A stretch of DNA of 60,423 nucleotides, filler included, from Nemertoderma westbladi (lineage: Eukaryota > Animalia > Xenacoelomorpha), in assembly GCA_032718475.1 (NCBI GenBank). It is 2 parts of 2 records of this genome, joined end to end, with 100 filler letters (N's around TTAATTAATTAA, not from the genome) between each part and the next. Parts side by side here need not be neighbours in the genome. Positions count along the whole stretch, not along the records: positions 30,986 to 60,423 come from JAUCBJ010006211.1; 1 more part is not named here. One strand, 5' to 3'. The notes beneath the pieces were generated by a model. It did not search any database and had not been told where the DNA came from. It saw nothing but the letters and a program-made list of their open reading frames with translations. Every line of letters begins with the position of its first letter. Position 1 is the stretch's first letter. Both the position numbers and the translations under genes were made by a program. Below are positions 10,640-54,429 of this stretch, in pieces.

Positions 10640-11090
10640 TGTCATAAAATATATATATTCAAGTAGGGAAATAAAGTTTGTTTTCGTTAATGATTTAATG
10701 TTAATGTGCATAGTACAGTAGTTGGCAACAGCAGGGGTTCATTGACATCAACTCATACATTATATCATTGATATACATACAGTATCGTCTATATTATTAA
10801 CTATTGTTTGTACAACGCTAGAATTACCTCATCGTTAGGAAGACATGCCCCTGCTGTTCGTCCTAATTAAAAGGGTCAATTAGTATTGCTACAATAATAG
10901 GAGTATACATAGAGTGTTGGTGCGGTGATGGTAAAACCAGTTGCTAATTGTCGTTGTAATATGTGTCATTTTTGTAATTAGTTAGTTAATTATTAAATTA
11001 GAGAAATATGTAATCATAATATTGTGTTTTTTAAACTGTTCATGGGCGGTTCAACAATCAGAAGAATATACATTCATCCCGTTCATGACA
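10640..11090 (+). repeat. 5' LTR of BEL/Pao element 1
   Basis: Direct repeat of 17316-17766; no differences seen by eye. Confidence 0.97.
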
Positions 11091-11100
11091 TGGCGCCCGA
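11091..11100 (+). promoter_or_regulatory. Primer-binding site TGGCGCCCGA (tRNA-Lys type)
   Basis: Immediately 3' of the LTR; matches the first 10 nt of the tRNA-Lys3 PBS TGGCGCCCGAACAGGGAC. Confidence 0.85.
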
Positions 11101-11410
11101 TGTTAAACGGCAGTAATATTCAACTGGGTAAGTCAAACTTCATTAGGAATACAGAATCACAGTAATTATACTGTGATAATTATATTTGCGTTGGTGTCTT
11201 CTATCTAATTGCAACAACCAAGGACAATATGAAATTATCGAAATCTGTTAATGCAAATTAGCGTCAACTACAGTAACTTCATAAATGTTTGACTTACTCA
11301 ATTGTACTGGTACGTTACAGTAAGCACCAGTGCGACGCAAAACAGGATTGCTTCTGTCGCTTACATATTAATTCACAGGTTCAACACACGATTTCCCAAC
11401 ATCAGCAAAC

Positions 11411-14400
11411 ATGTCAGAAATGGACGGGGAATTAACACAACTCAAACGTTCTCGTGGAATACTACGGGGAAAAGTCACTAGAGCGCAGAAGAGACTGAAT
11501 ACGCAACTTGACGAAGCTGAGAGGACAACATTGATGGAGACGTTTAAAGATTTGAATCAACGACTCTTAGAGGCCGATATGCAAATCGGTATACAGCTCG
11601 AAGATGACGAAATGGAAAGCGATCTGGACTATTCAGATGAGTATCAAACAATAATAAACAATGCAATTGCTTTCTTACGCAAGTCACTACCCACCAATCA
11701 GCATCATGCTGGTTATCACTCAAATACCACACTCAATGAACCTAGTTTTCAAGGTGTACATAATTCAACAGAATACATGTCCCACTTATCTATAATTCAA
11801 AATCAAACAGAAGGGAGAGTTTTAGCACGTTCAATGCTGTCCAAACTAAAACCCCCTACATTTGGTGGTAATTTGTTGGATTTCAAAGGCTGGCATGAAG
11901 CATTTCTCACAGCTATTGATGAAGCACAGGTGCCTGATGTTATAAAATTTCAGTACCTACGTCAGAGTCTCAAGGGCGAAGCCCTTAAGACTGTTGGAGG
12001 GCTAGCAGTAAACGGAACTAATTATTCAATAGCCATGAAATTATTAACTGAAAGATTTGGCAATGAAAGACAAATTATCAGGGCACACATAGAGCAAATA
12101 AGAGCCATTAGAAAAACCAAAACAACGTTACGAGAAATTTATGATCATTGCCAATCGCATGCAAGGGCTTTAGAAGCACTAGGTGTTTCAACTGACAAAT
12201 ATGAGCTGACAGTAGTTCCAGATGTGTTAGCTGCACTTCCAGAGAGAATTGCACTAAGATTTTGTCGTAAAAATAAAGATAAAGTTGAAAACCTTGAATG
12301 GATAATGGAACAAATCAAGGGGGAGTTGGAAGCTCATGAAATGCTATCCAATACAATAAACCCACCCCATTCAATAGACACTTCGTTGAGCAGTGATGGC
12401 CAAAACAGCTATCAACAATCGGTAGAAACCCCCAATGCACCCTTTCGTGATAAACATAAGGAAAAACACGTCAACAGACACACATACGGCGCAACAGCTG
12501 CTAATTTTGTGGCTAGTGTAACAAATGATGGAAAGGCTCACTTAAATGCCCAGTCGAGATCAGGTACAGCAAAATTGGGATCAAAACAAACAATTGTACC
12601 AGATTGTTTGTTTTGTAGACAAATTCATTACTCAGCTGATTGTTCGACAGTAACTGACCCTTTGGAAAGAAAGGAAATACTAAAAGAAAAAGGCCGTTGC
12701 TATATATGTTTAAGCAAAGAGCATATGGCAAATAAATGCCAATCGGTAAAACAATGCAAATTTTGCAACAATCGTTTTCACCATCCTGCAATCTGCCTGA
12801 AACGAGGTGTAGGCCCACAACGTCAATCTACAGTACTTGTTACTTCAACAGAAACAACCAATACACAACTGGAAATACCAAAACCTACAAATATTACGTT
12901 GTCATCCACAACAAATTCTAACACAACCTTACAAACGGCGACAATCAATGCATACGATGACCAAAATAACGTTTTTACTATCAATTCTTTGTTCGATCCC
13001 GGCGCTCAACGCACTTTTATTTTACGGGAAGTGCTCGAACGACATTCATTAACAGTGATAGGAAGTGAAGTATTGGCACCGCAAGGTTTTGGATCAAGTG
13101 CAAAAGCTTCGGAATGTTTCACAATTGTTGAAATAAAATTACAGTTGAGGAATTTGGAATTTGGAACAATTAAAGCATTAGTTATAGAAAAGATTTGTGA
13201 TCCAATCTACAACATGGTTCCACATAACGTTATAAAACAAAGTAAAACGCTAAGCTCTCTGCAATTAGCAGACGCAACTGTAACCAATGCTGCATTGTTT
13301 AAAATCGAGCTTTTAATAGGTGTTGACGAGTATTGGAACATAGTTTCAGGTTCCATAATTCGGGGCGCCCAAAACGAGCCGGTGGCCATAGACAGCGCCG
13401 TGGGCTGGTTATTATCCGGCCCCGCATATATCCCTGACTACGAGGAAACTCTTGTAATCAAATCGAACCAACACCTTTCCCCATCAACCACCTTAACGCT
13501 TGAATCGCGGTTGATTGCAAACCAATGTGTTGACATCGGTGACTCAGTTAAAGATCCTGAGTCACAAATTCTAACTATGTTAAAACTATTCTGGTCCCTA
13601 GAGTCAATCGGAATTACAACACTTGGCGAAGAACTCAAACCCATAATAACTGACATTAAATTCAAAGACGGAAAGTACGTAGTTCGTTTACCATGGAAGT
13701 TGGATCCATTCCAATTACCAGAACACTACCATAGATGCGCTACTCAACTGAAATCACTCATAACGAAATTGTCAAAAACTGGGTTGTTGATTAGCTACAA
13801 TGACGTCATTGAGGACCACTTCAGTAAAGGGTATGTTGAGCTAGTCGATATTACGCAGCCGACTACCAATCCAATTCACTATGTACCTCATCATGGGGTA
13901 ATAAAAGAAACACGCCAGACAACAAAACTCAGAGTGGTATTCAACGCGTCAGCTATAGACACAAAGTACGGCATTAGTTTAAATTCATGTTTGAATTACG
14001 GTCCTAATTTCTTACCATTATTGTTTCAAGTATTAGTACGTCTTAGAACCAACCGCATTGCAATAGTCGCTGACATTGAAGCAGCATTTATGCAATGCGT
14101 AATACATCCTGACGATAGAGATATGCTACGTTTTCTTTGGGTTAAAGACATAAATGACATCGATGTAAATAACCCAAAATTGCAAGCATATCGCTATACG
14201 CGGGCGATGTTTGGACTCTCGCCATCACCAGATATTTTATTTTCTATTGTCAGGAAACATTTACAAAGTAAATTAGATACTGCCAACGAAAACAAACGTA
14301 TTGTAATTGAAAAACTATTGCGGGATATGTATGTAGATGACTTTGCGTCTGGTGCAGACACTGTGTCGTCTGGTCTTCTCTTGTATGAGAATGCAAAGCA

Positions 14401-17116
14401 ATTGATGTTAGAGGGTGGATTTAATTTAAGAAAATGGCTCACAAATTCTGTCGAGCTACAACAAATTATAGATCAATTTGAAAAACCCAAAATCGTAAGT
14501 TTAAAAACAAATTCTGTACCAATATTATCAGAGGAAGACCAGACGTACGCAAAGGAATCATTGTGTTTATCAACACCACCTAGCGGTGAAACAAGGATTT
14601 TGGGACAAGTGTGGGATATAAGTAAGGACTACTTTGGGTATAACCTTGACCACGTCATATCCTTTGTTAAGAATCTAAAACCAACGAAAAGGGCTATATT
14701 GCAACTAACGGCTCGGATCTACGATCCGTTAGGGCTTATATCTCCCTTTTTAACGCCCTTACGAATCGTATTTAGGGAATTAGCTAACAGTAAGGTAGAT
14801 TGGGACGAACCACTACCTACTCATTTATTGAGCAAATGGGAATCATGGTTAAACAGTTTAGAAATTTTAAATAGCATTACAGTACCTCGATGTATTCTAG
14901 GTAATACAGATGATAACACTGTAGAAATACATGCTTTTTCAGACGCAAGCAAACAATTATACGCATGTGCCATTTACACTAGAGTAGAACACTCTGACGG
15001 AACTTACACTACAAACTTACTATGTAGTAAAGTTAAACTGGCACCTAAACAAAAACAATCAGTACCACGGTTAGAATTACTTGGCGCACTAATACTGGTA
15101 AGACTAGTACTGTTAGTGTATCAAGGTTTGGTACTACAAATAACACGTTCAGTATTTTGGACCGATGCATTAGACGTACTGTATTGGATACGACCAACAA
15201 ATAATACTCACAAACAATTTGTACACAATAGAGTACAGGAAATCCGTGACGTAACACAGAAATTGGGAGCAGAATGGAGGTGGTGTCCAGGGCCGTGTAA
15301 TCCAGCGGACATTCCAACAAGGACAATGGCACCAGACAAATTATTAAATAACAAACTATGGTATGAGGGTCCAGACTTTATATCGGGGGAGGAATCTGGT
15401 TGGCCAGAGTCACCAGTGATTACTGAGGCTCAAGTATCCAAGTGTGCTCTGTTAGATATAAAGTCCACCCTCATAATGACAACGACAATTAAGACAATCA
15501 ATACCGACGATACAGGATTATCTCAGATAATTAATGTAAATAATTTCAGTACAAAAAGGGACGTACAACACAGAATAGCTTGGATTCTACGGTTTGTAGA
15601 AAATATTAAAGCAAAACGTTTACACAAAGACCCCGTGTTATTACCATACTTAACAGCCAAGGAACTACATTTAGCCGAAATTAAAATAATTCTAGATTCA
15701 CAACGTGTAAACTATTCTCGGGAATTGTATTATCTTCGTGATAAATCAACTCAGTGTCCTAACGTTGTTAAACAATTAAATCTTGTGTTAGATGAATTAG
15801 GTATTATCAGATGTCAGGGTAGAATAATCAATGATACTATCCCATTCCATACCAGAAATCCTATTCTTCTTGCACCAGGTGACCATTTTACAAAACTCGT
15901 CATATTAAACTCACACGAGCGCGTTTCACATTCCCGAGTGAGAGACACACTAGTAGACGTTCGTGAGAGATTCTGGATACCATCGGCTAGACGGAAAATT
16001 CAACAAATTTTGTCTTCGTGTGTCATTTGTAAAAGGTTTCAAGGAAAACCCTATACAATGCCAGCAATCAGCCCCTTGCCAGTTTCTAGAACGATTGAAA
16101 CGCGCGGCCCCTTTGATCATTGCGGTGTCGATCTTTGTGGACCACTTCATACAGTTGCCAAACCAACCGAGACCGAGACTGAGACAATACAACCAACAGA
16201 AAAGGCGTGGATTGTTATGTTTACGTGTGCTGTAATAAGAGCCGTTCATTTGGAAGTAGTAACGTCTTTATCAGCGGTCGCTTTCATTAACGCATTTCAC
16301 AGATTCATAGCCAGAAGAGGAATACCGAGTATTATGTTTAGCGATAATGCTACAAACTTTAAGCGCAGTGCCAAGGAGCTAAGAGCGTACCGAATATTCT
16401 TGACAGATCCTGAGGTAGTCAGGATTTTTGGAGATCATAATATTACCTGGGAAAACAATATTGCAAACAATCCAGCAGCGTATGGATTTATAGAACGTTT
16501 AATTGGCACTTGTAAATCCGGAATTCGTAAGTTAATAGGACGAGCTGTCTTATCACTTGATGAGTTACATAATGTTGCGCTTTCGGTAGAAGCATCAGTA
16601 AATAGCAGACCAATCACATATGTTTACAGTAAGTTAGATGACGATGTACAGCCTCTCACCCCGAGTCACTTTCTTGTAGGAAAACGGCTCTGTGCAATAC
16701 CAGATTTATCAGATAAAGGGATTCTACCAAACCCTGAATCTAAATCTAAATCGGCAAGAAGAATGATACTTGATAGGGTTAAATATCAAGAGGCAGCGAA
16801 AAATTCAGTGTGGAAGTTGTGGCGTACAGATTATTTGAGAGAGTTACGTTCTTCTCACATTAGTAACAACGTAGCCCCCAAATCAGACATCATCCCGAAG
16901 GTAGGCGCTATGTGTCTATTACATAACGAGTCTATTCCCCGTTGCATGTGGAAGTTGTGTAGGATAGATGAATTAATTGTTTCAAGGGACGGCCGTGTGC
17001 GGTCTGCGAGAATTTCAATAGCGCCCAGAAATAAGGAAGCGAGATCACTCGTTAAATCCATACTACAATTATATCCATTAGAGGTATCTACTACAAATAC
17101 ACCACAAATAGATTAA
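11411..17116 (+). CDS. BEL/Pao Gag-Pol polyprotein (1901 aa)
   Basis: DUF1759-like gag (PPTFGGN..F..W), three Cys/His knuckles, protease FDPGAQRTF, RT YVDD, RNase H FSDAS, integrase HHCC plus VDL/SDNA/ERL core and C-terminal W..EYL-type domain; BEL/Pao domain order PR-RT-RH-IN. Confidence 0.97.
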   Translation: MSEMDGELTQLKRSRGILRGKVTRAQKRLNTQLDEAERTTLMETFKDLNQRLLEADMQIGIQLEDDEMESDLDYSDEYQTIINNAIAFLRKSLPTNQHHAGYHSNTTLNEPSFQGVHNSTEYMSHLSIIQNQTEGRVLARSMLSKLKPPTFGGNLLDFKGWHEAFLTAIDEAQVPDVIKFQYLRQSLKGEALKTVGGLAVNGTNYSIAMKLLTERFGNERQIIRAHIEQIRAIRKTKTTLREIYDHCQSHARALEALGVSTDKYELTVVPDVLAALPERIALRFCRKNKDKVENLEWIMEQIKGELEAHEMLSNTINPPHSIDTSLSSDGQNSYQQSVETPNAPFRDKHKEKHVNRHTYGATAANFVASVTNDGKAHLNAQSRSGTAKLGSKQTIVPDCLFCRQIHYSADCSTVTDPLERKEILKEKGRCYICLSKEHMANKCQSVKQCKFCNNRFHHPAICLKRGVGPQRQSTVLVTSTETTNTQLEIPKPTNITLSSTTNSNTTLQTATINAYDDQNNVFTINSLFDPGAQRTFILREVLERHSLTVIGSEVLAPQGFGSSAKASECFTIVEIKLQLRNLEFGTIKALVIEKICDPIYNMVPHNVIKQSKTLSSLQLADATVTNAALFKIELLIGVDEYWNIVSGSIIRGAQNEPVAIDSAVGWLLSGPAYIPDYEETLVIKSNQHLSPSTTLTLESRLIANQCVDIGDSVKDPESQILTMLKLFWSLESIGITTLGEELKPIITDIKFKDGKYVVRLPWKLDPFQLPEHYHRCATQLKSLITKLSKTGLLISYNDVIEDHFSKGYVELVDITQPTTNPIHYVPHHGVIKETRQTTKLRVVFNASAIDTKYGISLNSCLNYGPNFLPLLFQVLVRLRTNRIAIVADIEAAFMQCVIHPDDRDMLRFLWVKDINDIDVNNPKLQAYRYTRAMFGLSPSPDILFSIVRKHLQSKLDTANENKRIVIEKLLRDMYVDDFASGADTVSSGLLLYENAKQLMLEGGFNLRKWLTNSVELQQIIDQFEKPKIVSLKTNSVPILSEEDQTYAKESLCLSTPPSGETRILGQVWDISKDYFGYNLDHVISFVKNLKPTKRAILQLTARIYDPLGLISPFLTPLRIVFRELANSKVDWDEPLPTHLLSKWESWLNSLEILNSITVPRCILGNTDDNTVEIHAFSDASKQLYACAIYTRVEHSDGTYTTNLLCSKVKLAPKQKQSVPRLELLGALILVRLVLLVYQGLVLQITRSVFWTDALDVLYWIRPTNNTHKQFVHNRVQEIRDVTQKLGAEWRWCPGPCNPADIPTRTMAPDKLLNNKLWYEGPDFISGEESGWPESPVITEAQVSKCALLDIKSTLIMTTTIKTINTDDTGLSQIINVNNFSTKRDVQHRIAWILRFVENIKAKRLHKDPVLLPYLTAKELHLAEIKIILDSQRVNYSRELYYLRDKSTQCPNVVKQLNLVLDELGIIRCQGRIINDTIPFHTRNPILLAPGDHFTKLVILNSHERVSHSRVRDTLVDVRERFWIPSARRKIQQILSSCVICKRFQGKPYTMPAISPLPVSRTIETRGPFDHCGVDLCGPLHTVAKPTETETETIQPTEKAWIVMFTCAVIRAVHLEVVTSLSAVAFINAFHRFIARRGIPSIMFSDNATNFKRSAKELRAYRIFLTDPEVVRIFGDHNITWENNIANNPAAYGFIERLIGTCKSGIRKLIGRAVLSLDELHNVALSVEASVNSRPITYVYSKLDDDVQPLTPSHFLVGKRLCAIPDLSDKGILPNPESKSKSARRMILDRVKYQEAAKNSVWKLWRTDYLRELRSSHISNNVAPKSDIIPKVGAMCLLHNESIPRCMWKLCRIDELIVSRDGRVRSARISIAPRNKEARSLVKSILQLYPLEVSTTNTPQID

Positions 17117-17306
17117 AATAGTCATAAAGAAATACAATACGAACATTCTTCATACTTTATCATATTTGAAAATTATAATGTGCAATTAATTACACTAAAC
17201 AATATAACCTATTGTTTACTGTATATTAGTCATTTTTTGAAATTTTTTAAATGCAATAATGTATAACCCCACGTGGTGAAGGTTATGATTTGAAACTATT
17301 AGTTTC

Positions 17307-17315
17307 AAGGGGGAG
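17307..17315 (+). promoter_or_regulatory. Polypurine tract AAGGGGGAG
   Basis: Directly precedes the TG of the 3' LTR. Confidence 0.9.
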
Positions 17316-17766
17316 TGTCATAAAATATATATATTCAAGTAGGGAAATAAAGTTTGTTTTCGTTAATGATTTAATGTTAATGTGCATAGTACAGTAGTTG
17401 GCAACAGCAGGGGTTCATTGACATCAACTCATACATTATATCATTGATATACATACAGTATCGTCTATATTATTAACTATTGTTTGTACAACGCTAGAAT
17501 TACCTCATCGTTAGGAAGACATGCCCCTGCTGTTCGTCCTAATTAAAAGGGTCAATTAGTATTGCTACAATAATAGGAGTATACATAGAGTGTTGGTGCG
17601 GTGATGGTAAAACCAGTTGCTAATTGTCGTTGTAATATGTGTCATTTTTGTAATTAGTTAGTTAATTATTAAATTAGAGAAATATGTAATCATAATATTG
17701 TGTTTTTTAAACTGTTCATGGGCGGTTCAACAATCAGAAGAATATACATTCATCCCGTTCATGACA
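17316..17766 (+). repeat. 3' LTR of BEL/Pao element 1
   Basis: Direct repeat of 10640-11090. Confidence 0.97.
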
Positions 17767-30885: not shown

Positions 30886-30985
30886 NNNNNNNNNNNNNNN
30901 NNNNNNNNNNNNNNNNNNNNNNNNNNNNNTTAATTAATTAANNNNNNNNNNNNNNNNNNNNNNNNNNNNNNNNNNNNNNNNNNNN
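30886..30985. other. Artificial scaffold/concatenation linker
   Basis: 44 N + TTAATTAATTAA (stops in all six frames) + 44 N = exactly 100 bp. Confidence 0.95.
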
Positions 30986-32298
30986 TCCGTCCGCTACCGC
31001 CATTATATTTTACCTGTTGTGTCATACTATACTATATCAACTGTCAGACTATTATACCTATATACATATTACCCAACATCAGAACTCTTTTACCTTTCAC
31101 ACATGGCGGGGACGCGTGGATAGAAAACCCAACGGATAAACCGGGATCCGTAGATCCCGTCACAATGGCATCGATTGAGTAGCAGTAAGGCCACCGTGCA
31201 ATATAACCAATAACCTATTACTCAGTGATTCAGTTATCTCAGTGCAGCAGTGCTAGCGTAGGGTACAGCCAATTAGTTTAGTTAGGGGATCACAGGACTT
31301 TAGTTACCGTATCCCGCCTACCGTATAATTCACAATATATCTATATCCTATAACCTATTATTATACACCGAACTTCAGAACTCAGTTATCTTTATTTCAC
31401 TCTTATACACGGCGGGGACGCGTGGACTAAATACCACATCGGATAAATCGGGATCCCTCCTGGATCCCGTCACAGTAACTAAAGCGAGCTGCCGCCCTAG
31501 TTAAACTCTAAGAACTGCAACCTAGCTAGCCGAATCATCAGCCACAAACGAGATGAGTGAATCGGGCGAGACACCAACGCGGACCCCGGGCGAAGATCAA
31601 ACGATCCGCGAGGCCGCGACCAAGCGATACAGGCCCACGACGCCGGAGCCATCGATAACGGGCGAACCGGAAATTGAGGATGAGGGGGGCCTGGAACCCG
31701 AAGTCGAGCCAAGAGAGAGAGAGAGCGAGACGGAGGGAGAGGGAGATGAGTCGACACGGGACGGAGAACGGCGCGCCGATGTCGCCGGCCAGCTACCGGC
31801 CGAGGGCGACGAGCGGCCCACCGAAACGGCGACGGTGGGGCCGACGGTGCGACGCCGGACACGAAGAGACGGAGGAGAGATCGGTACCGATGTCGCCGGC
31901 CAGCTACAGGCCGAGGGCGACGGACGGCCCACCGGAACGGCGACGGTGGAGCCGCCGGTACGACGTCGAACCCGGAGGGACGGAGGAGAGGTCGGCGACG
32001 AGGACGTCGGGGTTTCTGAGCGACTTCGACGGGCCTACAACGCGACCCGGAAGCTGATAAACGATGCCATTCCCCCCTCTGATTGGTTAATACCCTTGTT
32101 GGCGCCCCGTGGAGTATTCCCGTTCACTCCACCTGTTCTCCTTGGGTTAGGGGTTTGGCCCCTGACCCTCTATTGTGTGCTTCCTTCCCACTCTCATTGG
32201 GATGGCACGAGTTGGTTAATTGCCCAATCTCGTGGCTCCCAATGTTGCTTATCGGCTAATAACTTTATGGGGTGTTGGCGGGATTGAATAAGCTAACA
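30986..32298 (+). mobile_element. Rearranged fragments of sister subfamilies of BEL/Pao element 2 (two LTR 3' halves, leader, start of ORF, inverted LTR 5' half)
   Basis: GGCGGGGACGCGT...GATCCCGTCACA ends at 31164 and 31474 match the element 2 LTR. ORF 31553 (MSESGETPTRTPGEDQTIREAATKRYRPTTP) is homologous to 53793-52622. 32062-32298 matches the other LTR half in opposite orientation. Confidence 0.85.
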
Positions 32299-32340
32299 AT
32301 TTATTTTACAATTTTCCTTGAGGCCAATTTAATGTTTGGT

Positions 32341-39575: not shown

Positions 39576-40156
39576 TGTGACGGGATCGATGGATTCCGAT
39601 TTATCCAGTTGGGTTTTCTATCTACGCGTCCCCGCCGTGTGTGTAAAAGGGTTAGTTTAGAGTTCTGAAGTTCTTTGATCGATATGTGTAAAATACAATG
39701 CATAGAGTGATATAAGCACAGTTAATAGGATTAAAGTGAGCAAATGATATACCGGTAGGTAAGTATTACATATGGTGGCGTCGGTAGACGGTAATAGAAG
39801 TTCCCGTTTCACCCTAACTGAACTGATTAACTAAACTGAATTAATTGGCACAACAAATGATAATATATATTGCACCGTTGGCCGCATTACATTACTCAGT
39901 CGATGCTTGCCCTCCCATTGGCTAACAACTCACTTCTCGCCTCCCATCTCACTGGGAGTGTTCCCCCCCCCCCCCCCACTGCTGTTATTCTCTCTCTCGG
40001 AGGTAAAAACCTCTGACCCCCTTTGTGTGTTCCCCTGGGGCCTGTTGTCCCCGTTTATTGGGGTGACACGAGGTTGATTGGTAATCAACCTCGTGCTCCC
40101 AATATTGCTTAAAGCCAACTTTTTGGGGCTGGCTAGCGGAATTGAATACGCTAACA
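39576..40156 (-). repeat. 3' LTR of element 2
   Basis: Direct repeat of 53856-54429 with roughly 14 substitutions and 1-2 indels by eye; preceded on the minus strand by PPT TTGGGGGGAG (40157-40166). Confidence 0.95.
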
Positions 40157-41082
40157 CTCCCCCCAAGCTATCTTCCCGGTGAGAAGATAGCATCCACCTC
40201 TAGTGCGCTACAATTCCGCTGGATCCCGATCTACCATCGGGTGTGGGGTGGAGTTATTTTTCCCGGAGCCGGCTTTCCAGGCCGCTCCCTATGGGTATAA
40301 TATTGCTACCCCGTCTTGGTACAACTCTACCTATCTAGTACCAAGACATCTGGCGTCCCGTGTCGGGCCGATCGTGCGCTCCTCTCACTCGACTTTTGTT
40401 TTCCCAACACTTTCACCACTCTAACTCCGCTCTATCCCTTACTCCAACTTCTCAACCACTCCAACTCTTACTCCTCCCCCGCCCCACACTCGAATTGCAC
40501 TCCTCTCACTGTTCCTCATCCTGTCAAAAATCTCCTCTCCACTCTCCCCCTGATTCCCATTCTCGCTTTTGTCCCTTACACATTCATCGGGCCCCACACA
40601 TGTGTACATCATGTTAGTGGGAACCGTCTAAGTCCCGTCCTGTCGCCCTAGTTAATTAGTCCCCAGTCCCAGTAGCTAATTGGAAAAGGTTGTGCTTGAC
40701 TACGGTACATACTTTATAATATATATATGCGAGTTACTTATATAAATATTATATGGCTATTATTATCATATGTTCGTGGTATTTCAACTTTTCATAACGC
40801 GAGTTGAATATTTTTTGTATTTATTTAAAATGATTATTCCGATATCACTACTGGGTGCGGGACTATGGGTTTTGGGCACATTCTATGAACTGGGGGCGAT
40901 TTATGGGCGAACATTGGGGCAACTTACAGGGTACGGGAATAATTTCATAGTTATAAGGGCCAGGGGTGGGAGGCAAAGTTAAGCAGTATTCAGGTTAGCC
41001 TGAGTACTATTAGGCCCTGGCCAACTTCCTGCTGCCTGTAGAGGTGGATTTGGTAACGCACCAGGCCTAAAGGACAAGGACT

Positions 41083-41882
41083 GCCCTTAGCGGCCCCTGG
41101 CCAACAGCAGTTATTACGAGCCTGAAAAGGACATCGGAACGCCGGCTGCTTGCGCCAGGGATTTGCGACGGGAAACGATAGCCCCCTTAGCTAAGCCGTA
41201 CTGGTTCTCGATGACCGATCCCTTCGGGGTTCGCGAGGGGTGGGACGGACATGCGAAAGGGTGGCCGACTAACAGAGGACGGGTTTGACGAGGACTTCCC
41301 TTAGCGGTCTCTGGTCAACAGCAGTTATTACGAGCCTGAAAAGGACATCGGAACGCCGGCTGCTTGTACCAGGGATTTGCGAAGGGAACCGACGACAGAC
41401 CCCTGAGCTAAGCCGTACTGGTTCTCGATGATCGTTCCCTTCGGGGTTCGTGAGGGGTGGGACGGACATGCGACGGGGTCGAAAGACAAAGGACTGGACG
41501 CTACTGGCCTACCGACTGTTCGGAGCAGTTTCTTGGCTGCCGAAGCGACTACGAGCCTGAATAAGGACTCGGAAAGCCTAGGTGGTTGGGTCTCTGCGAT
41601 GAACCGATGGACCCCTAGCCAAGCCGTACTGGTTCTCGATGATCGAACCCTTCGGGGTTCGGGAGGGGTGGGACGGATGCGCGAACGGGTCCACCGACAC
41701 GACAGACTCCTAGCCAAGCCGTACTGGTTCTTGATGATCGATCCCTTCGGGGATCGGCAGGGGTGGGACGGATAAGCAACAGAGTCTACCGACTGGACCG
41801 ACCCTTAGCCAAGCCGTGCTGGTTCTCGATGATCGATCCCTTCGGGGTTCAGGAGGGGTGGAACGGACACGCAACAGGGTCG
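41083..41882 (+). ncRNA. Putative array of eight structured RNA hairpins (A-B-A-B-A'-B-B-B), antisense to element 2
   Basis: B modules: long stem, GAU bulge with tandem GA/GA, cUUCGg loop, covarying basal stems. A modules: nested stems capped by CCU-GAAA-AGG. Expression not shown. Confidence 0.55.
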
Positions 41883-42694
41883 ACCGACACCGACACTACG
41901 GCACTAAGACCAGGACTGGGGAACATTAGGTAGGCTAAAATCTGGGGAACATTGGGTAGGCTAAAATCTGAGTGAACAGTGGGTAATTAAATAATATACT
42001 GTAGGGATTTATATTGTCGTGTATAATTATTGTGAATATTTGGTGTATATTGATTTGGGGAAGCCCAATTAATTATCAATCAGGATTCAATGTTGTTGAA
42101 CAGGATTCAACTGTAGGAAGTTACATTAAAGAGTATATCCAACCAATGCAATTTTTCCTCAACCGCAATCCTGCATTCAAGATATCATTCCTTCTCCACA
42201 ATCAATATCCGGTGACTGGCCGGGACTCTGTGGTCTGTAAAGTCACGTCTCCAGCATCGGCGTTTTCCCCCCTGGTGTTTGGGATAACGGCAACATCATA
42301 TATTATATTATATACTCGTCTACATAACTCGCCTCATTCTCTTTCGGCCTTTCTCCCCTGGCGACTTCTTCCAGTCGCTTCTCCCCAAATCTATGCTTCC
42401 AACTTCTCCCACGTGATATGTGTATCCACTTCCCTGTCTACTAGATGCCGGCTGTTGTATTACTCCGACTCGCCCTTCAGCCCCAGGTGGTCTACCAGAC
42501 CTTCGAAGGCCACCTTGAAGGCTTTTCTGTAGTTCGGAGGTGATCCCAATATTCTTGATTTTTTTTTGTTTTGTATTATCTCTGTTTTGTGCTATTACCC
42601 TACCTACCTTTCTTGCTACTATTTCTATGATATATCGTGCTCTCTTATCTCTTACTATATACTATATCTTATACATATCCTCCTACCACCAATT

Positions 42695-43699
42695 CTTGCT
42701 ACTAACGGCACTCTACGTACCCTCTTACTAACTAATTCTACAACTAACTACTACTCTTACTAACTGGTACTACGTACCCTCTTACTGAGCTTAAACTCCC
42801 ACTAACTCTTTCTAACCGGTACTACGTACCCTCTTACTAACCTCTAACTCCCACTAACTCTTACTAACCGGTACTACGTACCCTCTTACTACTAATCTCT
42901 TACTACCTAACTAGCGGTACTACGTACCCTCTTACTGACCTCTAACTCCCACTAACTCCTACTAACCGGTACTATGTACCCTCTTACTAACCTCTAACTC
43001 CCACTAACTCTTACTAACCGGTACTACGTACCCTCTTACTACTAATCTCTTACTACCTAACTTGCGGTACTACGTACCCTCTTACTAACCTCTAACTCCC
43101 ACTAACTCTTACTAACGGTACTACGTACCCTCTTACTAACCTCTAACTCCCACTAACTCCTACTAACCGGTACTACGTACCCTTTTACTACTAACCTCTT
43201 ACTACCTAACTAGCGGTACTAGGTACCCTCTTACTAACCTCTAACTCCCACTAACTCTTACTAACGGTACTACGTACCCTCTTACTAACCTCTAACTCCC
43301 ACTAACTCCTACTAACTGGTACTACGTACCCTTTTACTACTAACCTCTTACTACCTAACTAGCGGTACTACGTACCCTCTTACTAACCTCTAACTCCCAC
43401 TAACTCCTACTAACTGGTACTACGTACCCTCTTACTACTAATCTCTTACTACCTAACTAGTGGTACTACGTACCCTCTTACTAACCTCTAACTCCCACTA
43501 ACTCTTACTAACAGTACTACATACCCTCTTACTAACCTCTAACTCCCACTAACTCCTACTAACCGGTACTACGTACCCTCTTACTACTAATCTCTTACTG
43601 TCTAACTAGCGGTACTACATACCCTCTTACTACTAATCTCTTATTATCTAACTAGCGGTACTATGTACCCTCTTACTACTAATCTCTTACTATCTACAG
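42695..43699. repeat. Compound tandem repeat of GGTACTACGTACC hairpin plus ACTAAC motifs in element 2 3' region
   Basis: About 20 units of 45-52 bp in two alternating types; about two dozen TACTAAC on the plus strand. Confidence 0.9.
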
Positions 43700-43837: not shown

Positions 43838-46800
43838 CTAAGGTGCTCCCTCTAACAGGCAGCACTTCCCTACAGCCCTCCTGTAGATCTTCCTATCTTT
43901 CGCCCCTATCTTGCCACCTATCCGCACTTCTACCGATCGGACTCTTTCGTCCTCATCGGAGTAAGTGCCCACAACTCTCACCAACTGCCACTGGTTGTTG
44001 ATAATGGTATCGTCCGTGACGATCACCAGATCACCCTCCTTCAACTCCCTGTTTGTATTTCTCCACTTGCTTCTCCTATGAAGCGTGGGTAGGTATTCCT
44101 CGACCCACCTCCTCCAGTACTCCGTGCTTATTGCCTTAGCGACTTTCCAACTCTGGCGGGAGTGTATATCGTCTGGGTCTACACCCCGCATGTCGATTGT
44201 CGCTGGCCTTTCCATTAGAAAGTGACTGGGCGTCAGCACATCTAATGACTCAGGGTCATCATTTTCTGGATATAGCGGTCTGCTATTAATGATACCCTCA
44301 CACTTTGCTAGTACCGTTCTTAGTACGTCCTCTGTAACCATGTGGGTGTTCATCAACTTCGTCATCAGACGTTCGAACTACCCACGAGTCTCTCGACGCA
44401 TCCTAGAGTATGCGGAGCATACGGCGTCCTCCTCTCCCACTTTACCTGTCGCCTTCTCATGGCTGCCCTGACTTCCTCCCCTTCCAGGATATCCAAGGCC
44501 TCTGCTATCTCGTTCCCTGCCCCCACAAAGTTGGTTCCGTTGTCAGAATATATTACTGCGATTTTCCCACCTTTGCGGTCTCTGAACCTTTCTAGAGCAT
44601 TAATAAATGCTGATGCAGTTGCATCTTGGGCGAGTTCTATCCCTACCGCTCGCGTGTTATTACACACAAAGATGATACCGTAGCTTTTCTCCGTGTGTCG
44701 CATCACCTTAATCTTTATTGGCCCGAACATATCCACACCGCAATGCGTAAATGGCGGGTAATTTTCTCTTACCCTACTCGCTGGTAGTGGAGCCATCTCC
44801 TGTATGGCTAGCTCCTTCTTCGTTCATTGGCAGGTCTGGCACTGCCCCACTACTGCCTTTACTTTCTTCCTCAACTGTTTGACCCAAAAGGTCCTCCGTA
44901 TCTCCGTGAGGGTCCGGTTGGTGCCCTTGTGCAATATCGACTTATGGGAGTCCCATATAATCTGGTGGACTATCGCGATCTATTAGGGATGATGATGGGC
45001 TTTGGTGGGATGACAATACTGTTGTTGTTCAACACCCTAGAGTTCATTACTAGGATCCCGTCATCATTGAGTTGTGGTGACAGCGCGATCAGCTCACTGT
45101 GCCGTTGGAGATGCTGTTGTTTACCGACGCATTCCACCTCGTCGCCGTAGTTCTTTCTCTGTTCATAGTGGATGATTGCCTTGGCCGCTCCCTCCAGATC
45201 GATGGTTGTTTGAATTTTTACGTCTTTGCCGACTCTCTTGAGGAAATTCCCGAAGGCTCTCCAGTACGCTACTAACTTCTTGGTCTTGTACCAACTAGAG
45301 CTGTAGCTAAGGAGTTTGTCCGTTGGGTTATCGCACAGTTCTCCCGGTTTTGGTTGCACGTCCCTTATCTCCCTCACCATTTGGCTGTATATCTCTTCAC
45401 TCTCTGAATCACCTTCCTCTTCCTCTAATGCTGCCTCTCCTGAGCCCGGGTCAACCTTTCTCATCGGCGGCCAGGCTGTCTTATCACTCAGAAATTGTGG
45501 CCCATGCTGCCACAATACTTCTTTCTTTAAGAAAGTGTGGCGTGCCACGCCCCTCAATAACAAGTCCGCTGGGTTCTCGTCCGTTGGGCAGTAGTGCCAC
45601 CTTTGTAACTCTGTGGTGGCCCTTATTTCGTCCACCCTATTTGCAATGAATATAGGGTACCTCGTCCTTTCGTTATGTAGCCAACCAAGCACTACCATGG
45701 AATCCGTCCAGTAGTGTGTCTCCACTATGTTGGGAATAGCGTCCATCAAGTAGGCTGTGGCCCTTACTCCTAACCTCACTGCTGTTAACTCGAGTTTTGG
45801 AACTGATGCCGAATCTGGTGGCGTCGACTTCGCCTTGCTGAATGCGAGTCTGGGCTTATGAGCCCCCCTCGTTGTACTAAGTAGAGTGCCGCTCCGTATG
45901 CTTCTAACGACGCATTGGAGAACATATGTAAATCCAGATTCGTCATGTCCCCATCTGGGAAATACACGCGTGGCATGCTGTATGTTCCCATCTGCTCTAA
46001 ACTCTCTGTCCACTTGCGCCACTGCTTCCTGATCTCTTCCGGGACCTCCGTGTCCCAATCCTCCTTCAATTTGTATACTCTCTTGAGTATCTGTTTCCCC
46101 GTGACTAGTAATGGGGAGGCTAGGCCTAGGGGATCGTATATCCTTGCTATGTACGACACATAGCCCCTCTTTGTGTGGATGTCTGCACCCTCCTGGCTCA
46201 ACTGATACTTCAGCTCATCTGTTTCTCTGTTCCACACGATCCCCAGTGCCTTCTGTTGGGACTCTATTCTCCTGCTCGCCATGTCCTGTCCCTTAGCTGT
46301 GGTGGGATTATCCATGGTCGATTCTGGTCTCTCGTCCTTTATGGCCTTGATAAATTCCTCTGAACTGGATTGGAATTTGGTTAGGTTAAAGCCGGATCCC
46401 TTAAGGATGTCGCGAACCTCGTGCCCTGTGTCCAGTAGTTCCTTAACCTTTTTTCCAGACTCCATCCCGTCGTCCACATAGAAGCCGCGTCGAATCATAT
46501 CGACGGCCCTAGCGCTGTATTTATCTTCCTTCCCCTCTACTGTATCTCTTACGGCCACAGTTGTCGTAAATGAAGATGACTTGGCTCCCATATTCTGTAC
46601 TATCATCTTGTACATCGGTATTGTCGACGGTTCCTTGTCGCCGTTGTACCATCTGTTGTACCGCTGTCGCTATCCTCTTCCGTCACACGGACTTGGTTGA
46701 ACATGCCTTCTATGTCACAGGTGAAGGCGTGTTTCCCATTCCTGAATCTGAGTAGGACCTCGATCCCTGAGTTGTAGATATTGGGACCCTCCAGCAGATA

Positions 46801-49006
46801 ATCGTTTAGGCATTTTCCGTTGGTCTTAGCTGATGCGTCAACTACCATCCACAGTTTACCTTTCTTCGGGTCTAAAGCCACATGGGGTGGCAGGTAATAG
46901 GTCCTGTCCGTGTTTGGTTTGTCGACCGGTAGTTCTACGGCCCATCCTTTCTCGACATACTTCCTGATCGTTTTGTGAATGTACTCATTCTTTTCAGGGC
47001 TCTGTTTTAGCGTCTGCTTCAACTTACGAAGCCTCGCGAGTAAGCAAAAAATTATTCGACTTTATTGTCGGGTAGCGGTAGCTTCGGTAGCTTCCATACC
47101 ATCCCTATGGTATACCGCCCCTCATCGCATCTCATCGACTCCTTTACGCTCTGTAGAGCCTGTTTATCTTCTACCGAGGTTCCGACCCCGGTCTCTTTTA
47201 ATCCCTCAAAATCCTGCTTGAGCAGTCTCCTGAGCTGCCCCTCCGCTCTCTCATCTCCCATCTCTCGCATAGTTCCCGCGAACAAGCACCCTGAAGTCTC
47301 CGACATTCTAAATGGTATCTTGTTCTTAATTGGGCCACTCAGCGTCCACCCAAATGGTGTTAAAATTGCCACCGGGTCACACTGCCTGTCTTCGCCGAAG
47401 ACCGTTCGAATTCTCTCGTGGGCCGTTGGGCAGTCCATTCCTACTATGATGGATACCTTCCTAATGTCCTACTCTGGGATTGAGAAATCGATACTGTCCA
47501 GGAATTTATATTGTTTGACCTCGATGTTGGTTGGCCGTCTGGCGTTGATATTTATCGACTCTATCACCTTGATGGGGTCGATGGTCGCCCCATAGTCGCA
47601 TCCGGTGCTACCGCTGCTATCGCGCACCATCCGGTCCTCATCTCCAGGACCTCATCTTTGCTGGAGATGGCTGTTACCGCCATTCTACTTGGCCTCATTC
47701 TCAATCCTATCTCTTCGGCCACCCAATTCTCGACTAATGTGAAGGCTGCTCCACTGTTGACCAGCATCAGTGTGGTCACTGATCGATTGCCTTCCCCGAT
47801 TATCCTTACCGGTACTACCCCGAGTAGTACTGTTCTTCTTTTTTTTGCCCCTACGGTGCTCGTTGCCATCGTTTGCCCTTTGCCTTGTCCGAACTTAATT
47901 GGCGTTTCTTTGCATTGATCGGCTCTGTGTCCACTCATCACACATTGAGAACAAATTTCATATCTCCTTGCGTATTCTGTCTGATCTTCCCTGGGTAGCG
48001 CCTGCCAATACCTGCAGTTCATGGTCTGATGAAGTGCATTTGTATGTAATTGGCATTTGTTCTTTGGGTTATAGCCATCCTTATACAGTGCGCTGCATAT
48101 CGCACTTGCATTCGTACCCAAGTCCCTACTGTTCTTATTACTTGGGTTCGGACTACTGGGCGTGCTGGGGTTATGTTTATTTGTGTTGTTATTTTTCCCC
48201 TGTCCGCTCCATGATGTGGTCTTACCCCCGGCTATTTGTGGACTAGCAGTCCCCTGCGTCACCGCGTATGGCAGTGACTGTCTGAGCTTCGGCAATGCGT
48301 TCGACGCGTTGTGTTCCGGTTTTAGCCTGTGGTAATCGGTCTTTGGTCCCTTTCCCAGGCTATCCTCGCTATAGACTGGGTCCGTTATTAATTCGGCATT
48401 GTAGTTCAAGAAGCTTGACATTTCTTCTAAACCCGGTTCCGCACCCTTCCTTTCTCGAGTGGAGAAAGCGATTTTCCTCCACTTATTGCGCAGCCATATC
48501 GGTAGTGCCTGCGCTATCGTGGTGATGTTGTTAGACGCATTGAGTTCGTATGGCGCGTCCAGCATCTTTAACACGATTAGAGCTTTCTCGACTTTGTTCG
48601 CAAATGTCTTTATGCTAATGGGATTATCCTGTAGGCCACCTGATGTTATACCTCTCAGGGTTTGCCGGATGATCTTGGCCGGGTGCCCGTATTCCCTGTC
48701 TAATGCCCGCCATGCTGTCGTGAAGCCGACCTCGATGCCCTGGTATTGCCTCACGATGTCGTTTGCTGGGCCTCCTGTATATACTTGCAGATATTTTAGG
48801 CACTCCGCCTGCGTCAAGTTCTTTGTTAATATTTTGTTACTATACATGCGCCAAAACTGTAGGTATTCTTCCGGCCTACTTCCATCGAACTTAAATGGCT
48901 CTACAGGTGGCAGTTCGATCCTGGTCTTTAAGGCATTGATTAATGTAGCCATTTCCATTGCCTGTGCCTCCAATGGGTTCGATGGATGCTGTATAGATTC
49001 TCCCAT
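43838..49006 (-). pseudogene. Frameshifted BEL/Pao gag-pol of element 2
   Basis: Gag PFKFDGS..EYLQFW, Cys/His knuckles, protease LVNSGA (D to N), RT CDIEGMFNQV and YVDD, RNase H FSNAS (D to N), integrase VDMFGP/SDNGTNF/VERLV, W..EYLP C-terminal domain; split over several frames. Confidence 0.93.
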
Positions 49007-50454
49007 TGGGTGCGGTCCGTTTGTCCTATTTGCTGCCCTGTGTTGGGTATGTCATAGGGGGTAGCAGCCCCCTCCATATTTCTGTGTCACACGATCTGTT
49101 CTCGTCCAAGGGGTTTGATATTCTTGCTCCTATTGGGGTATATTGTTGATATTGTGATGGGGGAATGTCACCCTGCCCCCCCCCCCCCCCACCGGTATGT
49201 TTGATACTGGGGTTGATGTTAATATATTGGGGCCCATGCACCTATCCGCAATAATTCTCCCCTCCCCTAGATATATGTTATGTCCTTGCATGCTGTAGTC
49301 ATACTGCTGTGCTGGTACCGGTATAGGCATATCAACTTCTGGCCTACCTACTGGTATGTACTCCAGGACTTCTGGGTTTAATCCCATCGTCCGCGCTACC
49401 CTATCGCCTACATTATCTCTCCCAGCATGGCCTATGGTATGTGCAGTGAGTCCTATAGTATGTCCTGCAGTCTGTATGTGTCGCTCGGGATCAAAGTTTA
49501 TTCTTCTCGAGTAATCCTCCCCGCGGCTACCGTATTCTCGATCGGTAGGTAGATCCCGCCGGGAAGTTTCTCTTCGACCCCCTCTACTACTCTTGTCCTC
49601 GTACCGGTACATCGCGTACCCCTCTCTCGGCACGTAGTGCGCCTCATCAGGTCGCCTTTCTCCGGGACAACGGCAATCTCCCGAATTTCGACCCCACTGA
49701 CTCTCCGTTCCCATCTCGACTACCGACGGCTTGCTATCCATCCTTGCTCTCCTGTCGTTCGCGACGACACTTCTTCTACTTTCTTCTCTTCTTCTCTCTA
49801 TAGTGCAGTATTCCTGCTTGTGAGATCTCTCGTCGACCTCCCGGTTAAACTCCACTGTTCTTCTTCCCTCTTCTGATTGGGCTCGACGCTTCGTCCACCC
49901 TCTCGCGACGTCAACCTGTCTCTCTCTGCTCGATCGCACGCTGCTGGGGATACTCGCAATCCCCCTATTACGCTCCATTGCTGGGTGTTGCAGTTTACCT
50001 AATTCGGCCCGCGCATTATCCGTTGATGCCTGTGGGGCACTCTCTGCCCCCCCCCCCCCCTCTCGCCGCTAACTTCTTGTTGTGGGGCTCCTGTAGCCCC
50101 CCCCCCCCCCCCCCACTCGCCACCTATCACTCCATTACCTCTTACTTCACTTCTACACTCCTCTCGAGTCGACGCACTATCTCTATTGCGGCTGGGTCTA
50201 TTCACCCCTGCCTCTCTCTCTACTACTGCGAGGCCTACCAGGCCCCCCTCGGGTTGACTCAACCCCGCCACCTCCTACCTACTAACTACGTGGTCTACCA
50301 GGCCCCCTTCGGGTTGGCTCAACCCCGCCACTTCCTGCCTACTAACTACGTGGCCTACCAGGCCCCCTTCGGGTTGGCACAGCCCCTCCACTTCCTGCCT
50401 ACTGACTGTACGGCCTACCAGGCCCTCATTTGCCGGGTTATGCACGTCTGACAC

Positions 50455-52467
50455 GTTCATATTAATAGCACCACTATCAACACCATTAGTTAAGTCAACT
50501 AAATCCTCCAAGTCAATTAAATTATATTGTACGCCTATATTATAAACGGAATTATTTTGTTCGTTCGAAATAAGATTATTTGAATTATCTTGCGTAATTA
50601 TATTTTTTGAATTATTCTGCAAATTCGGATTCAGATTATTATTTAAATTATTTGGATTATTTTGCAAATTCGGATTCAGATTATTATTTAGATTATTTGA
50701 ATTATTTTGTAAATTAGAATGGCTCTGATTTAAATTACTACCGTCGGACAAAATATTATTTCCTGCAATGAAAGTTTGGTTAGAATTATCCACTATGGTA
50801 CTATTAATATTAACATTATCTACTGTATTATTATTACCCCCCCCCCCCCCCCCCCCAGTATGGTCACACCAGTCTTGGGTCTGTCGTGCGGTCCCTGTAA
50901 GTGGAGTATTATTTATTTTATTTATTTCTTTATTTACCGCAGGCAACATATGGAAAATATTATAATATAATCGCACAATCAGCCCATATCGTCTACCTAC
51001 GTTATAGCACAATAATTAAATATTAAGTATTCAATTGATTATGTATGTATGTACTTAGTAATACTAATAATTCGCTAAATTAACAGATTTTCGGAATTGC
51101 ACATTTCAAAAATTCTAGAACTATGCAACGCGGTGTAACGATATACAGCATTTACAATATAATTACTGGAACATTTTATCCTACGAAATAAACTTTGAAT
51201 TGATTTGTAACGTAAATGAATGAAGCACGGAATATTGTTGCAACCAAAGAAATATGACATACTAGAACCTACAGAGATGAAAAATAGCTTTCTTGCTGCA
51301 TTATTGTATGCTACCCTTAACCGATTATAGACAACAGATGAATAGTTCCTACGTGACCATAGAGCATTACAATATAGTGGAGTTATAAACGCTAGAAATA
51401 AACGAACTTTCACTGCAACGGTACAGGTACTGAATTTTCTAAACAACGTATTTGTACGGGCGTACATACTACCTATTTGTTTCTTTATGTCAAGATCATC
51501 ATCACGTGATTCGTGTATTATATGACCCAAATATGTAAATTTATCAGTTCTAGAAATAACACGCTGGTATAAATATATTGGAGCTATTGTACTTAAGTTA
51601 CAAGATTTCGGGCACAAAAACATTACCTTAGTCTTCTTTAAATTAAACAATATAGAATGTGAAATGGCATAATCCTGACACACATTAACTAACTTTTGTA
51701 AACCTATAAGTGAATTTGACATTAAGCCAATGTCGTCTGCATACATTGTATGATTAATCCTTTGACCATTAATTGAACAACCTACGTTAGCCATTATAAG
51801 TTTACGGGATAAGTCGTCCATGTAAACATTAAATAAATAACCAGATAATATTCCGCCTTGCTTCACGCCATTAAACACTGCAAACGTTCTGGAATACGTA
51901 GCACCCCAGCGCACTTGTAATGTTTGATGTCGGTACCAAAAGGCTAAAATACGCACCAAATAGAGTGGTACATTCCTATTTATTAATTTCTGAAAAAGTT
52001 TATCGTGATCTATTCTGTCAAATGCTTTAGATGCATCCAAGAAACAAATATACATAGGAGAATCATTATCTAAGTAATAATCAATAACCTCTTTCAGAGT
52101 ATATACACAAAGCTCGGTACCGCTATTTGCCTTATATGAGAATTGGTGATCGCTACAAATTAAGAAAGACTGCATTCTAGATAATAAAATACGTTCAAAT
52201 ATCTTACTTATTGCTGTTGAAATAGCAACGGGCCGATAGTTTGATTTCTCATCTATAGCACCGTTTTTATCTTTAATGATTGGTACAATAATACTATGAA
52301 TAATGGAACTTGGTAAATAACCATGTACCATACAAGAACTGAAAAATAAAGCTAATAAAATATTTAGCCTACTACTATTACTGTAAATGAAATGTTCCCC
52401 AGACACATTATCTGGTCCTATCGCTTTACCTAATTTTAAATTAGCTATTGCACATCCTACTAATAAA
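50455..52467 (-). mobile_element. 5'-truncated CR1/L2-group LINE (open RT frame 51075-52467) plus AT-rich 3' sequence, nested in element 2
   Basis: KAIGPDNV, NYRPVAI, FLDASKAFD, GVKQGGILS, MYADDI, FTYLGH; abrupt AT-rich composition within GC-rich Pao sequence. Boundaries approximate, clade assignment tentative. Confidence 0.85.
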
Positions 52468-53793
52468 TGTTTCCCTAACTCCTGGCTCCTCATAAATACT
52501 CGAGCCAGCCTCGCTCTCTGACAACCCCATCTGCGCCAGTTCTAGTCGGCGCTTCTGTTTCGTCTGATACTGCATAAGCCCCCTTAGCCGGGCATGCATA
52601 CCATCCCGCACACGTTTTCTCTCACTCTCTCTCTCTCTCTCTATCCTCTCGTGAACTCTGATCGGCTAACTCTGCCTCTCTCGCAACTCTCTCCAGTCGT
52701 CTCGCCTCCCTCGCCACCTCACGCTCTTTACGTTCCGCCTCACGCTCTTTACGTTCCGCCTCACGCTCTTTACGTTCACTCTGCTCTCTCGCCTCTCTCG
52801 CCTCCTCACGCTCTTCTCGCTCCTTTCTTTCCATCCTCCCTATTTCCTCGCACACCTTAAAGCTTCTCACGGCCTTCTCGGCCCTCTCTTTGTTCTCTCT
52901 AACCAGTTCTTTCTCCTTCTCTATTAACACACTCTCTTCCTCTAACTGTCTCTTTAATTCTCTCTGGTCTAGCGCCGCCAGATCGAGTTGGCACGCCAGT
53001 TCTATTTCTTGCACCCGTCTTTCTTTTGCGGAGGACATAGCAGACTTATCGGTTACGACGGACTCCCTCCGCCTCCCCGTCCTACTAACTTTCCCCCGCC
53101 TCCCAGAACTTTCTCCGACCGACGAGACCGAATCCTCGAGGTTAACCTTGGATTCGCCCTCCTGCGGTCCCCTCCAACCCACTAATTTTATTCCCCGGGC
53201 ATCGACTAAGTATGTCCCTATGTACACTACACTAGGCTCCATACCCCTACATTCCCATAGTTCAAACAGTTCGCTGGCAACCTCTCTCGCTCTCTTGCTG
53301 GCTAGTTCTCCCTGCCCAAAACGCATTAAATAATCGAAATGCCTGTTCGACTCACCTAGCCGCTTTTCCAACTTCACCTGGTCTATCTTGGCCCCTCCTT
53401 TAGCTTCTTTCAGTTGCTTCCGGGTTGCGGCATAGGCCCGTCGAAGCCGGTCGCTGACCCCAACGTCCTCGTCGCCGACATCTCCTCTATCTCTCCAGGT
53501 CCAGCGTCGTACCGGCGGCCCCACTGTTGCCATTCCGGTGGGCCATCCGTCGCCCTCGGCCTGTGACTGGCCGGCGACATCAGCACGTCGACCGCCGTCG
53601 TGTGTCAACTTGTCTCTCTCTCTCCTCCCGACTCGTCTTCTAGTTGTAGACGGCCCCCTTCATCTTGGATTGCCGGATCGCCCGTTATCAATGGATCCGG
53701 CGTCGTGGGTCTGTACCGTTGCATCGCGGCCTCGCGGATTGTTAGGTCGTCGTCCGGGGTCCGCGGCAATGTCGTTTCTCCTTCTCGACTCAT
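52468..53793 (-). pseudogene. Charged/coiled-coil N-terminal ORF region of element 2 (continues at about 50454-49007)
   Basis: MSREGETTLPRTPDDDLTIREAAMQRYRPTTP... then E/R/K-rich coiled coil; frameshifted; homolog at 31553-32057. Confidence 0.75.
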
Positions 53794-53844: not shown

Positions 53845-53855
53845 ACTTCTATTAC
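53845..53855 (-). promoter_or_regulatory. Non-tRNA primer-binding position GTAATAGAAGT, complementary to LTR-internal ACTTCTATTAC (54081-54071)
   Basis: Abuts the CA end of the 5' LTR; no TGG; perfect 11-nt inverted repeat with the LTR interior. Confidence 0.75.
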
Positions 53856-54429
53856 TGTGATGGGATCGATGGATCCCAATTTATCCAGTTGGGTTTTCTA
53901 TCTACGCGTCCCCGCCGTGTGTGTAAAAGGGTTAGTTTAGAGTTCTGAAGTTCTTTGATCGATATGTGTAAAATACAATGCATAGAGTGATATAAGCACA
54001 GTTTATAGGATTAAAGTGAGCAAATGATATACCGGTAGGTAAGTATTACATATGGTGGCGTCGGTAGACGGTAATAGAAGTTCCCGTTCCACCCTAACTG
54101 AACTGAGTAACTAAACTGAATTAATTGGCACAACAAATGATAATATATATTGCACCGTTGGCCGCATTACATTACTCAGTCGATGCTTGCCCTCCCATTG
54201 GCTAACAACTCACTTTTCGCCTCCCATCTCTCTGGGAGTGTTTTCCCCCCCACTGCTGTTATTCTCTCTCTCGGAGGTATAACCTCTGACCCCCTTTGTG
54301 TGTTCCCCTGGGGCCTGTTGTCCCCGTTTATTGGGGTGACACGAGGTTGATTGGTAATCAACCTCGTGCTCCCAATATTGCTTAAAGCAAACTTTGTGGG
54401 ACTGGCTAGTGGAATTGAATACGCTAACA
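53856..54429 (-). repeat. 5' LTR of element 2
   Basis: Direct repeat of 39576-40156; TATA-like ATATATATT and several TCAGT Inr-like motifs on the minus strand. Confidence 0.95.

Follow-up and report, generated by a model that had tools for sequence, protein, structure and literature searches.

Priming in described LTR retrotransposons and in element 2

The Belpaoviridae are described by the ICTV as tRNA-primed LTR retrotransposons, with an 18-nt primer-binding site (PBS) for host tRNA-Arg or tRNA-Gly (PMC8742986). Priming without a tRNA is established for Tf1, Tf2, Tj1 and the Tf1/sushi group, in which, according to the available text of PMC4600332 and PMC10085805, a PBS abutting the LTR is complementary to a stretch of about 11 nt within the LTR of the same element. 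Self-priming has also been predicted for Tcn1 and plant copia TAR (Houba, Osr-1) from a complement to the PBS of at least 10 nt in the LTR (PMC6317226, in the part available), and the ancestral state has been suggested to be hairpin priming (PMC3601003, likewise in part). A literature search, with subscription journals, Repbase reports and supplementary PBS tables outside its scope, returned no report of self-priming in BEL/Pao. Among surveys of this superfamily, the available text of PMC554778 makes no mention of tRNA and that of PMC3118150 and PMC6238403 none of primer or tRNA; PMC2774666 mentions neither PBS nor self-priming in the part available, and no BEL/Pao self-priming case is given in the available parts of PMC3601003, PMC6934838, PMC5443660, PMC4558846 and PMC3532108. 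The first-pass annotation of the present locus knew of no description of self-priming in BEL/Pao; predictions of self-priming outside Tf1/sushi are already in print (PMC6317226, in part).

Element 2 is a broken BEL/Pao copy on the minus strand (54429 to 39576) of the window, that is, the whole 60,423-nt stretch of Nemertoderma westbladi DNA analysed. It shares with the Belpaoviridae of the ICTV the domain order, LTRs, polypurine tract and short target-site duplication, but a host-tRNA PBS is absent from element 2 and from all eight related families whose LTR ends were defined blind (from the best 79 of 540 loci). Its PBS does not start with TGG; as in Tf1/sushi elements, it abuts the 5' LTR and complements 11 nt of its own LTR, within the Tf1-type range of at least 10 nt, whereas its proteins are of BEL/Pao and not of Ty3/gypsy chromovirus type. 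Element 2 further differs from Tf1 in that its primer site is probably internal rather than at the RNA 5' end, in that helices resembling the side helices of the Tf1 pretzel were not found (98-404 of 500 shuffles), in the assembly of the site across a splice junction in its relatives, and in a covarying copy of the PBS in U5. The complement of at least 10 nt used for copia TAR (Houba, Osr-1) and Tcn1 is also present in element 2, although those elements belong to other superfamilies and hosts and no LTR intron is mentioned in the available text of PMC6317226. The present analysis adds the covarying U5 copy, a precise case of intron loss, a blind test on contigs from public data and a family that is both distant and free of the intron.

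Together, the sequence comparisons make it likely that the BEL/Pao family of element 2 is self-primed, the 5' part of the element's RNA serving as primer for minus-strand DNA synthesis. If this is true, tRNA-independent priming extends to the third large LTR superfamily, contrary to the reference description, which bears on the question of which state is older, tRNA priming or self-priming. Self-primed elements may then escape tRNA-fragment control and PBS-based silencing, annotation tools seeking a tRNA PBS would miss or misjudge them, and a splice-built primer would tie the replication of a retrotransposon to RNA processing by its host. Exact RNA ends are predicted, which ordinary sequencing can test.

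Element 2, its sister copy and the pairing of PBS and LTR

Element 2 is bounded by a 5' LTR of 574 nt (53856..54429, minus strand, TG...CA) and a 3' LTR of 581 nt (39576..40156, minus strand), which share 559 identities with 15 mismatches; it is flanked by a 5-bp target-site duplication, AGAAG, and lies within a 39-bp tandem array. A polypurine tract lies at 40157..40164 and a frameshifted gag-pol at 43838..49051 (both minus strand), the latter with DUF1759, protease, RT/Peptidase_A17, rve and DUF5641. The Gag-PR-RT-RH-IN order with BEL-specific domains, TG...CA LTRs, polypurine tract and target duplication are those of BEL/Pao; the filing is protein-based, the tRNA-type PBS being lacking. A Ty3/gypsy identity is ruled out by the BEL/Pao domains and by the lack of a chromodomain match, and the Pol is not that of the Ty3/gypsy chromoviruses to which Tf1/sushi belongs. 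Because it is frameshifted, this copy cannot show activity. A 5' ORF (52622..53659, minus strand) has no Pfam match, homologous DNA lying 3' of the sister's PBS, and an RVT_1 ORF within element 2 (51075..52541, minus strand), labelled non-LTR (LINE) type from its translation, is probably a nested insertion; another RVT_1 fragment of non-LTR type occurs at 694-1503. The U3 contains a near-perfect hairpin with 13-bp arms (54340-54368 and 40067-40095), and an antisense, consensus-like splice donor is found in R of both LTRs (54035-54045, plus strand). At least five GC-rich repeats of about 90 nt each occupy 41175-41895 in the long 3' non-coding part, and a 98/149-bp tandem array (42749-43696) immediately follows the pol stop. 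An Rfam scan of 30900-55000, these 90-nt repeats included, gave no match, and no tRNA was found by ARAGORN.

The PBS of element 2 (53845..53855, minus strand) reads GTAATAGAAGT and abuts the LTR end TCACA, and its uninterrupted exact complement, the candidate self-primer site, lies at 54071..54081 (minus strand). The first-pass annotation had described both a PBS without an initial TGG and an exact 11-nt complement inside the LTR, and all coordinates hold: the 11 bases directly after the 5' LTR end, and the LTR copies at 54081-54071 and 39801-39791, are the only three places of this 11-mer in the window, the two latter occupying position 349-359 of their respective LTRs. Dinucleotide shuffles of the element 2 LTR gave 11 nt at offset 0 in 1 of 5000 cases and at offsets 0-5 in 2 of 5000. 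Control self-matches did not exceed 5 nt in the element 1 leader and two 3' flanks. Element 1, an intact BEL/Pao element with identical 451-nt LTRs (10640..17766, plus strand), bears at 11091 a TGG-type PBS, putatively for tRNA-Lys, and its proposed use as an internal control was borne out. The identical LTRs and an unbroken ORF of 1914 aa mark element 1 as a very young insertion; it lies in a 45-bp tandem array, as element 2 likewise lies in a tandem array.

A sister copy is represented by a 5' LTR fragment (31165..31474, plus strand) with its primer site at 31298-31307 and by a PBS at 31475..31484 (plus strand). Upstream, a third LTR belonging to the family of element 2 is represented by its 3' part (30986..31164, plus strand), cut by an N gap just after the primer position, and the sister copy is truncated by an inverted U3 piece (32050-32299) from this LTR family. 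At 30886-30985, two N runs flank a 12-nt palindromic all-frame stop that looks like an artificial contig join, so the left and right halves of the window may not be neighbours. Between element 2 and the sister, three letters differ on both partners and 10 bp are retained, the central triplet passing from CTA to TAG in the LTR site and from TAG to CTA in the PBS. Local pairwise alignment places both LTR sites in register between shared flanks; the register rests on this alignment because global pairwise and three-way MAFFT alignments misplaced the region. The sister's 10-nt match was reached in 7 of 5000 shuffles at offset 0 and 11 of 5000 at offsets 0-5. Duplex energies were -11.9 and -9.8 kcal/mol for cognate and -1.0 and -5.8 kcal/mol for swapped partners, a cross-pairing penalty of 4-11 kcal/mol between subfamilies. 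The earlier reading that both partners had changed with pairing kept is thereby upheld, the sites being homologous by local alignment. Duplex extension past the core did not rise above shuffles in element 2 (657-959 of 2000) and reached 46 of 2000 in only one of three window sizes in the sister; an extended bipartite PBS is unsupported by these tests. No candidate splice of at least 9 nt that would create or lengthen the primer was found in element 2 or the sister.

The TATA-like and Inr-like motifs previously placed upstream of the primer site were recovered by motif scan in element 2. The TATA-like motif (54144..54149, minus strand) stands 68 nt before the site and the Inr-like TCAGTT (54114..54119, minus strand) has its A at 54117, 36 nt before it. 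Among the Inr-like A positions, at -57, -36, -23 and -18 relative to the 11-mer, only that at -36 fits the usual spacing of about 32 nt from the TATA-like motif at -68, and from this spacing the A at 54117 is most likely the start site of element 2. The same pair occurs at -98/-66 in the sister and, among related loci, at -124/-92 in L021 and -68/-35 in L083; pairs 30-33 nt apart and 35-92 nt upstream of the site were present in 4 of 16 LTRs scanned, with no clean pair seen in the other 12. A start 18-40 nt upstream of the 11-mer, as first proposed, agrees with the pair at -36 in element 2 but not with the sister, whose -66 falls outside the range. The pairing of only 4-7 nt of the first exon in spliced relatives suggests a start further upstream, and the motif positions indicate that the primer is likely longer than that of Tf1.

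In folding, the primer:PBS helix of element 2 had a mean probability of 0.75-1.0 in 18 of 18 folds; that of the sister exceeded 0.5 in 21 of 28 folds and fell below 0.5 in seven, where a bulged PBS-like copy in U5 wins. This copy, or decoy (53895..53905, minus strand; 31422-31432 in the sister), continues the R-U5 stem and competes with the PBS for the primer site, and because it changes the same triplet, primer site, PBS and U5 copy covary. Swapping primers against the decoy costs 3.1 and 3.8 kcal/mol, and with the PBS removed the primer site pairs with the U5 copy at 0.68-0.95. Shuffling gives the decoy weak support (120 and 156 of 2000), its covariation amounts to one triplet change, and pairing of the primer with the downstream LTR was found at no more than 15 of 300 shuffles in only 4 of 18 relatives; for the weak shuffles and this low recurrence it is a lead rather than a result. 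The R-U5 stem and U5 hairpin appear in the minimum free energy fold, but neither rises above shuffles (354, 1268 and 489 of 2000 for the stem in the three LTRs of the window). No leader-U5 helix was found, and whole-leader folding was not unusual (z of -1.2 and -1.5).

Variation among copies was followed in Logan contigs, counted only at 80% likeness, which favours conserved parts; differences come from runs X1 and X2 (two of the six listed), with all 13 difference rows considered. No alternative letter was listed for X1 or X2 in 54067-54100 or in the PBS, 54058-54066 varies in X1 contigs, and contig depth is unbroken over the primer site in both runs. Three X2 contigs with 7-12 differing letters align through the PBS, two of them stopping at its far edge. 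The terminal hairpin of U5 (53861..53878, minus strand) is closed by T-A in the 5' LTR, and by C-G in the nested LTR, in the sister and in the 3' LTR; the two letters of this pair change in concert, and both changes dominate in X1 and X2. The region of the U3 hairpin had by far the highest summed contig depth among the matches listed.

Related families and putative splice-built primer sites

Relatives were collected by a scan of metagenome contigs, of which the best 79 of 540 loci formed 48 families at 90% amino-acid identity, and were scored for both contiguous and spliced (GT-AG) complements. A 5' LTR end set blind, by the divergence of the 5' and 3' copies and ignoring pairing, was obtained in 8 of the 48 families (from those best 79 of 540 loci). 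All eight have a self-complement of 10-13 nt at offset 0-4, matched in 0 of 300 leader shuffles each, and none has a PBS starting with TGG. In seven the complement spans a GT-AG junction within the LTR, with introns of 77-536 nt, and in one it is contiguous; one blind family has an LTR ending in TA rather than CA. Two donor variants and the limit of 4 on the offset entered the rule after early cases had been seen, and the shuffles ran under its final form. Eleven further families were positive, 10 of 11 tried and then 1 of 10 further candidate ends (L027); these count less because their ends were chosen partly for the match. The other nine candidate ends are undecided, several lying on truncated LTRs, and L052 was negative (own score 5). 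Positives cover 19 of the 48 families (from the best 79 of 540 loci), with a TGG near an uncertain LTR end in three of the other 29. When each leader was compared with each LTR, own pairs scored 10-14, except for element 1 and L052 (5), and others averaged 6; only 11 of 506 off-diagonal cells reached 10, eight of which have identical PBSs. The paired site ends 3' in AC in nine of ten cases, element 2 included.

Most relatives assemble the primer across a splice junction, which the first-pass annotation had missed together with the covarying U5 copy. In the 3' LTR of L021, the 536-nt GT-AG intron present in L032 is precisely missing, which leaves a contiguous complement; this absence provides DNA evidence for splicing at the junction and for the origin of intron-free forms, the state also found in element 2 and its sister. 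At L058:6545-6585, the 3' LTR lost the intron of L071 imprecisely, with 6 nt retained, and still has 10 of 11 PBS letters. A candidate PBS at L057:433 shares its first six letters with element 2 and has an AG-preceded match 100 nt upstream; no splice donor was found in the truncated L057 LTR.

Element 2 shows 34-36% identity to its best relatives and forms a long branch in the tree, which contains no named BEL/Pao reference elements; spliced and contiguous forms were not clustered in it, and element 2 and element 1 were not placed. The long branch and this level of identity leave shared ancestry of the mechanism unsure. The independent origin of self-priming in BEL/Pao that had been put forward could likewise not be shown, element 2 lying on its long branch and hairpin priming having been proposed as ancestral. 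The RT-RNase H piece of element 2 has a best database identity of 30-38%, none being above 38%. The LTR motif search gave no match in metagenome contigs and four in viral contigs, rejected as isolated 21-mers outside any LTR context; protein-based scans of viral contigs returned no relative, and a word-index protein search at similar length found nothing.

Proposed priming and its alternatives

Transcription would start about 36 nt (about 65 nt in the sister) before the primer site, which would fold onto the PBS beside the R-U5 stem and U5 hairpin. By analogy with Tf1, the element's RNase H may cut just after the site, leaving a capped fragment of about 47 nt that ends in AC with a 3'-OH and that the reverse transcriptase would extend through U5. 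Where a PBS is not close by, for instance in RNA not yet transcribed as far as the PBS, or in the 3' LTR copy should the transcript extend to it, the bulged PBS copy in U5 could sequester the primer site in a hairpin. The LTR intron may be maintained as long as the 3' copy mostly escapes splicing, and splicing of that copy would remove it. In retroviral replication, every cycle copies the PBS anew from the primer; this would explain both why the changes are matched and why a PBS can match a junction that the DNA does not contain. The broader model is tentative and held with rather less than even confidence: a widespread animal BEL/Pao lineage would self-prime with a long capped RNA piece, LTR-intron splicing would assemble the primer 3' end in most families, and in the intron-free element 2 the U5 decoy would serve as a switch, masking the primer site as long as the true PBS is missing and shielding the 3' repeat from being cut.

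Self-priming, put forward in the first-pass annotation, is the best explanation and gains support from the eight of eight blind-defined related families (best 79 of 540 loci). Under trans-priming, the PBS of a full-length RNA would be bound by a separate short LTR transcript, derived from solo LTRs, premature termination or trimming by the host, and RNase H would make no cut in cis. This reading fits all the complementarity and covariation, and it accords with the diverged LTR pieces, many and very abundant among the matches listed for Logan contigs of organism A, and with the failure to detect Tf1-like side helices. It is nevertheless unlikely, since folding of element 2 strongly favours pairing in cis and the R-U5 stem right after the site recurs in 8 of 18 relatives (at no more than 30 of 300 shuffles), as expected of a cis cleavage substrate.

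In the copia elements Osser and Bianca, a tRNA 5' half serves as primer, its 3' end matching the PBS. A host RNA, whether a tRNA half or another small RNA, might similarly prime element 2, the LTR pairing then being a structural switch for packaging, translation or timing; half-tRNA primers do exist in copia lineages (PMC6317226, in the part available), and the U5 copy shows that the site joins alternative folds. This is rendered quite improbable by PBS letters that are family-specific, each matching its own LTR only and often across a splice junction: because the letters differ between families, many different host RNAs would be needed. The reading that the complement has no function and arose by chance or template switching gains some room from the presence of only two PBS-bearing copies in the window, in which the three changed letters may be one event. 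Set against it are the shuffle statistics, the fixed position at the LTR border and the precise intron loss at the junction, and this very improbable reading is largely refuted by the eight of eight blind families.
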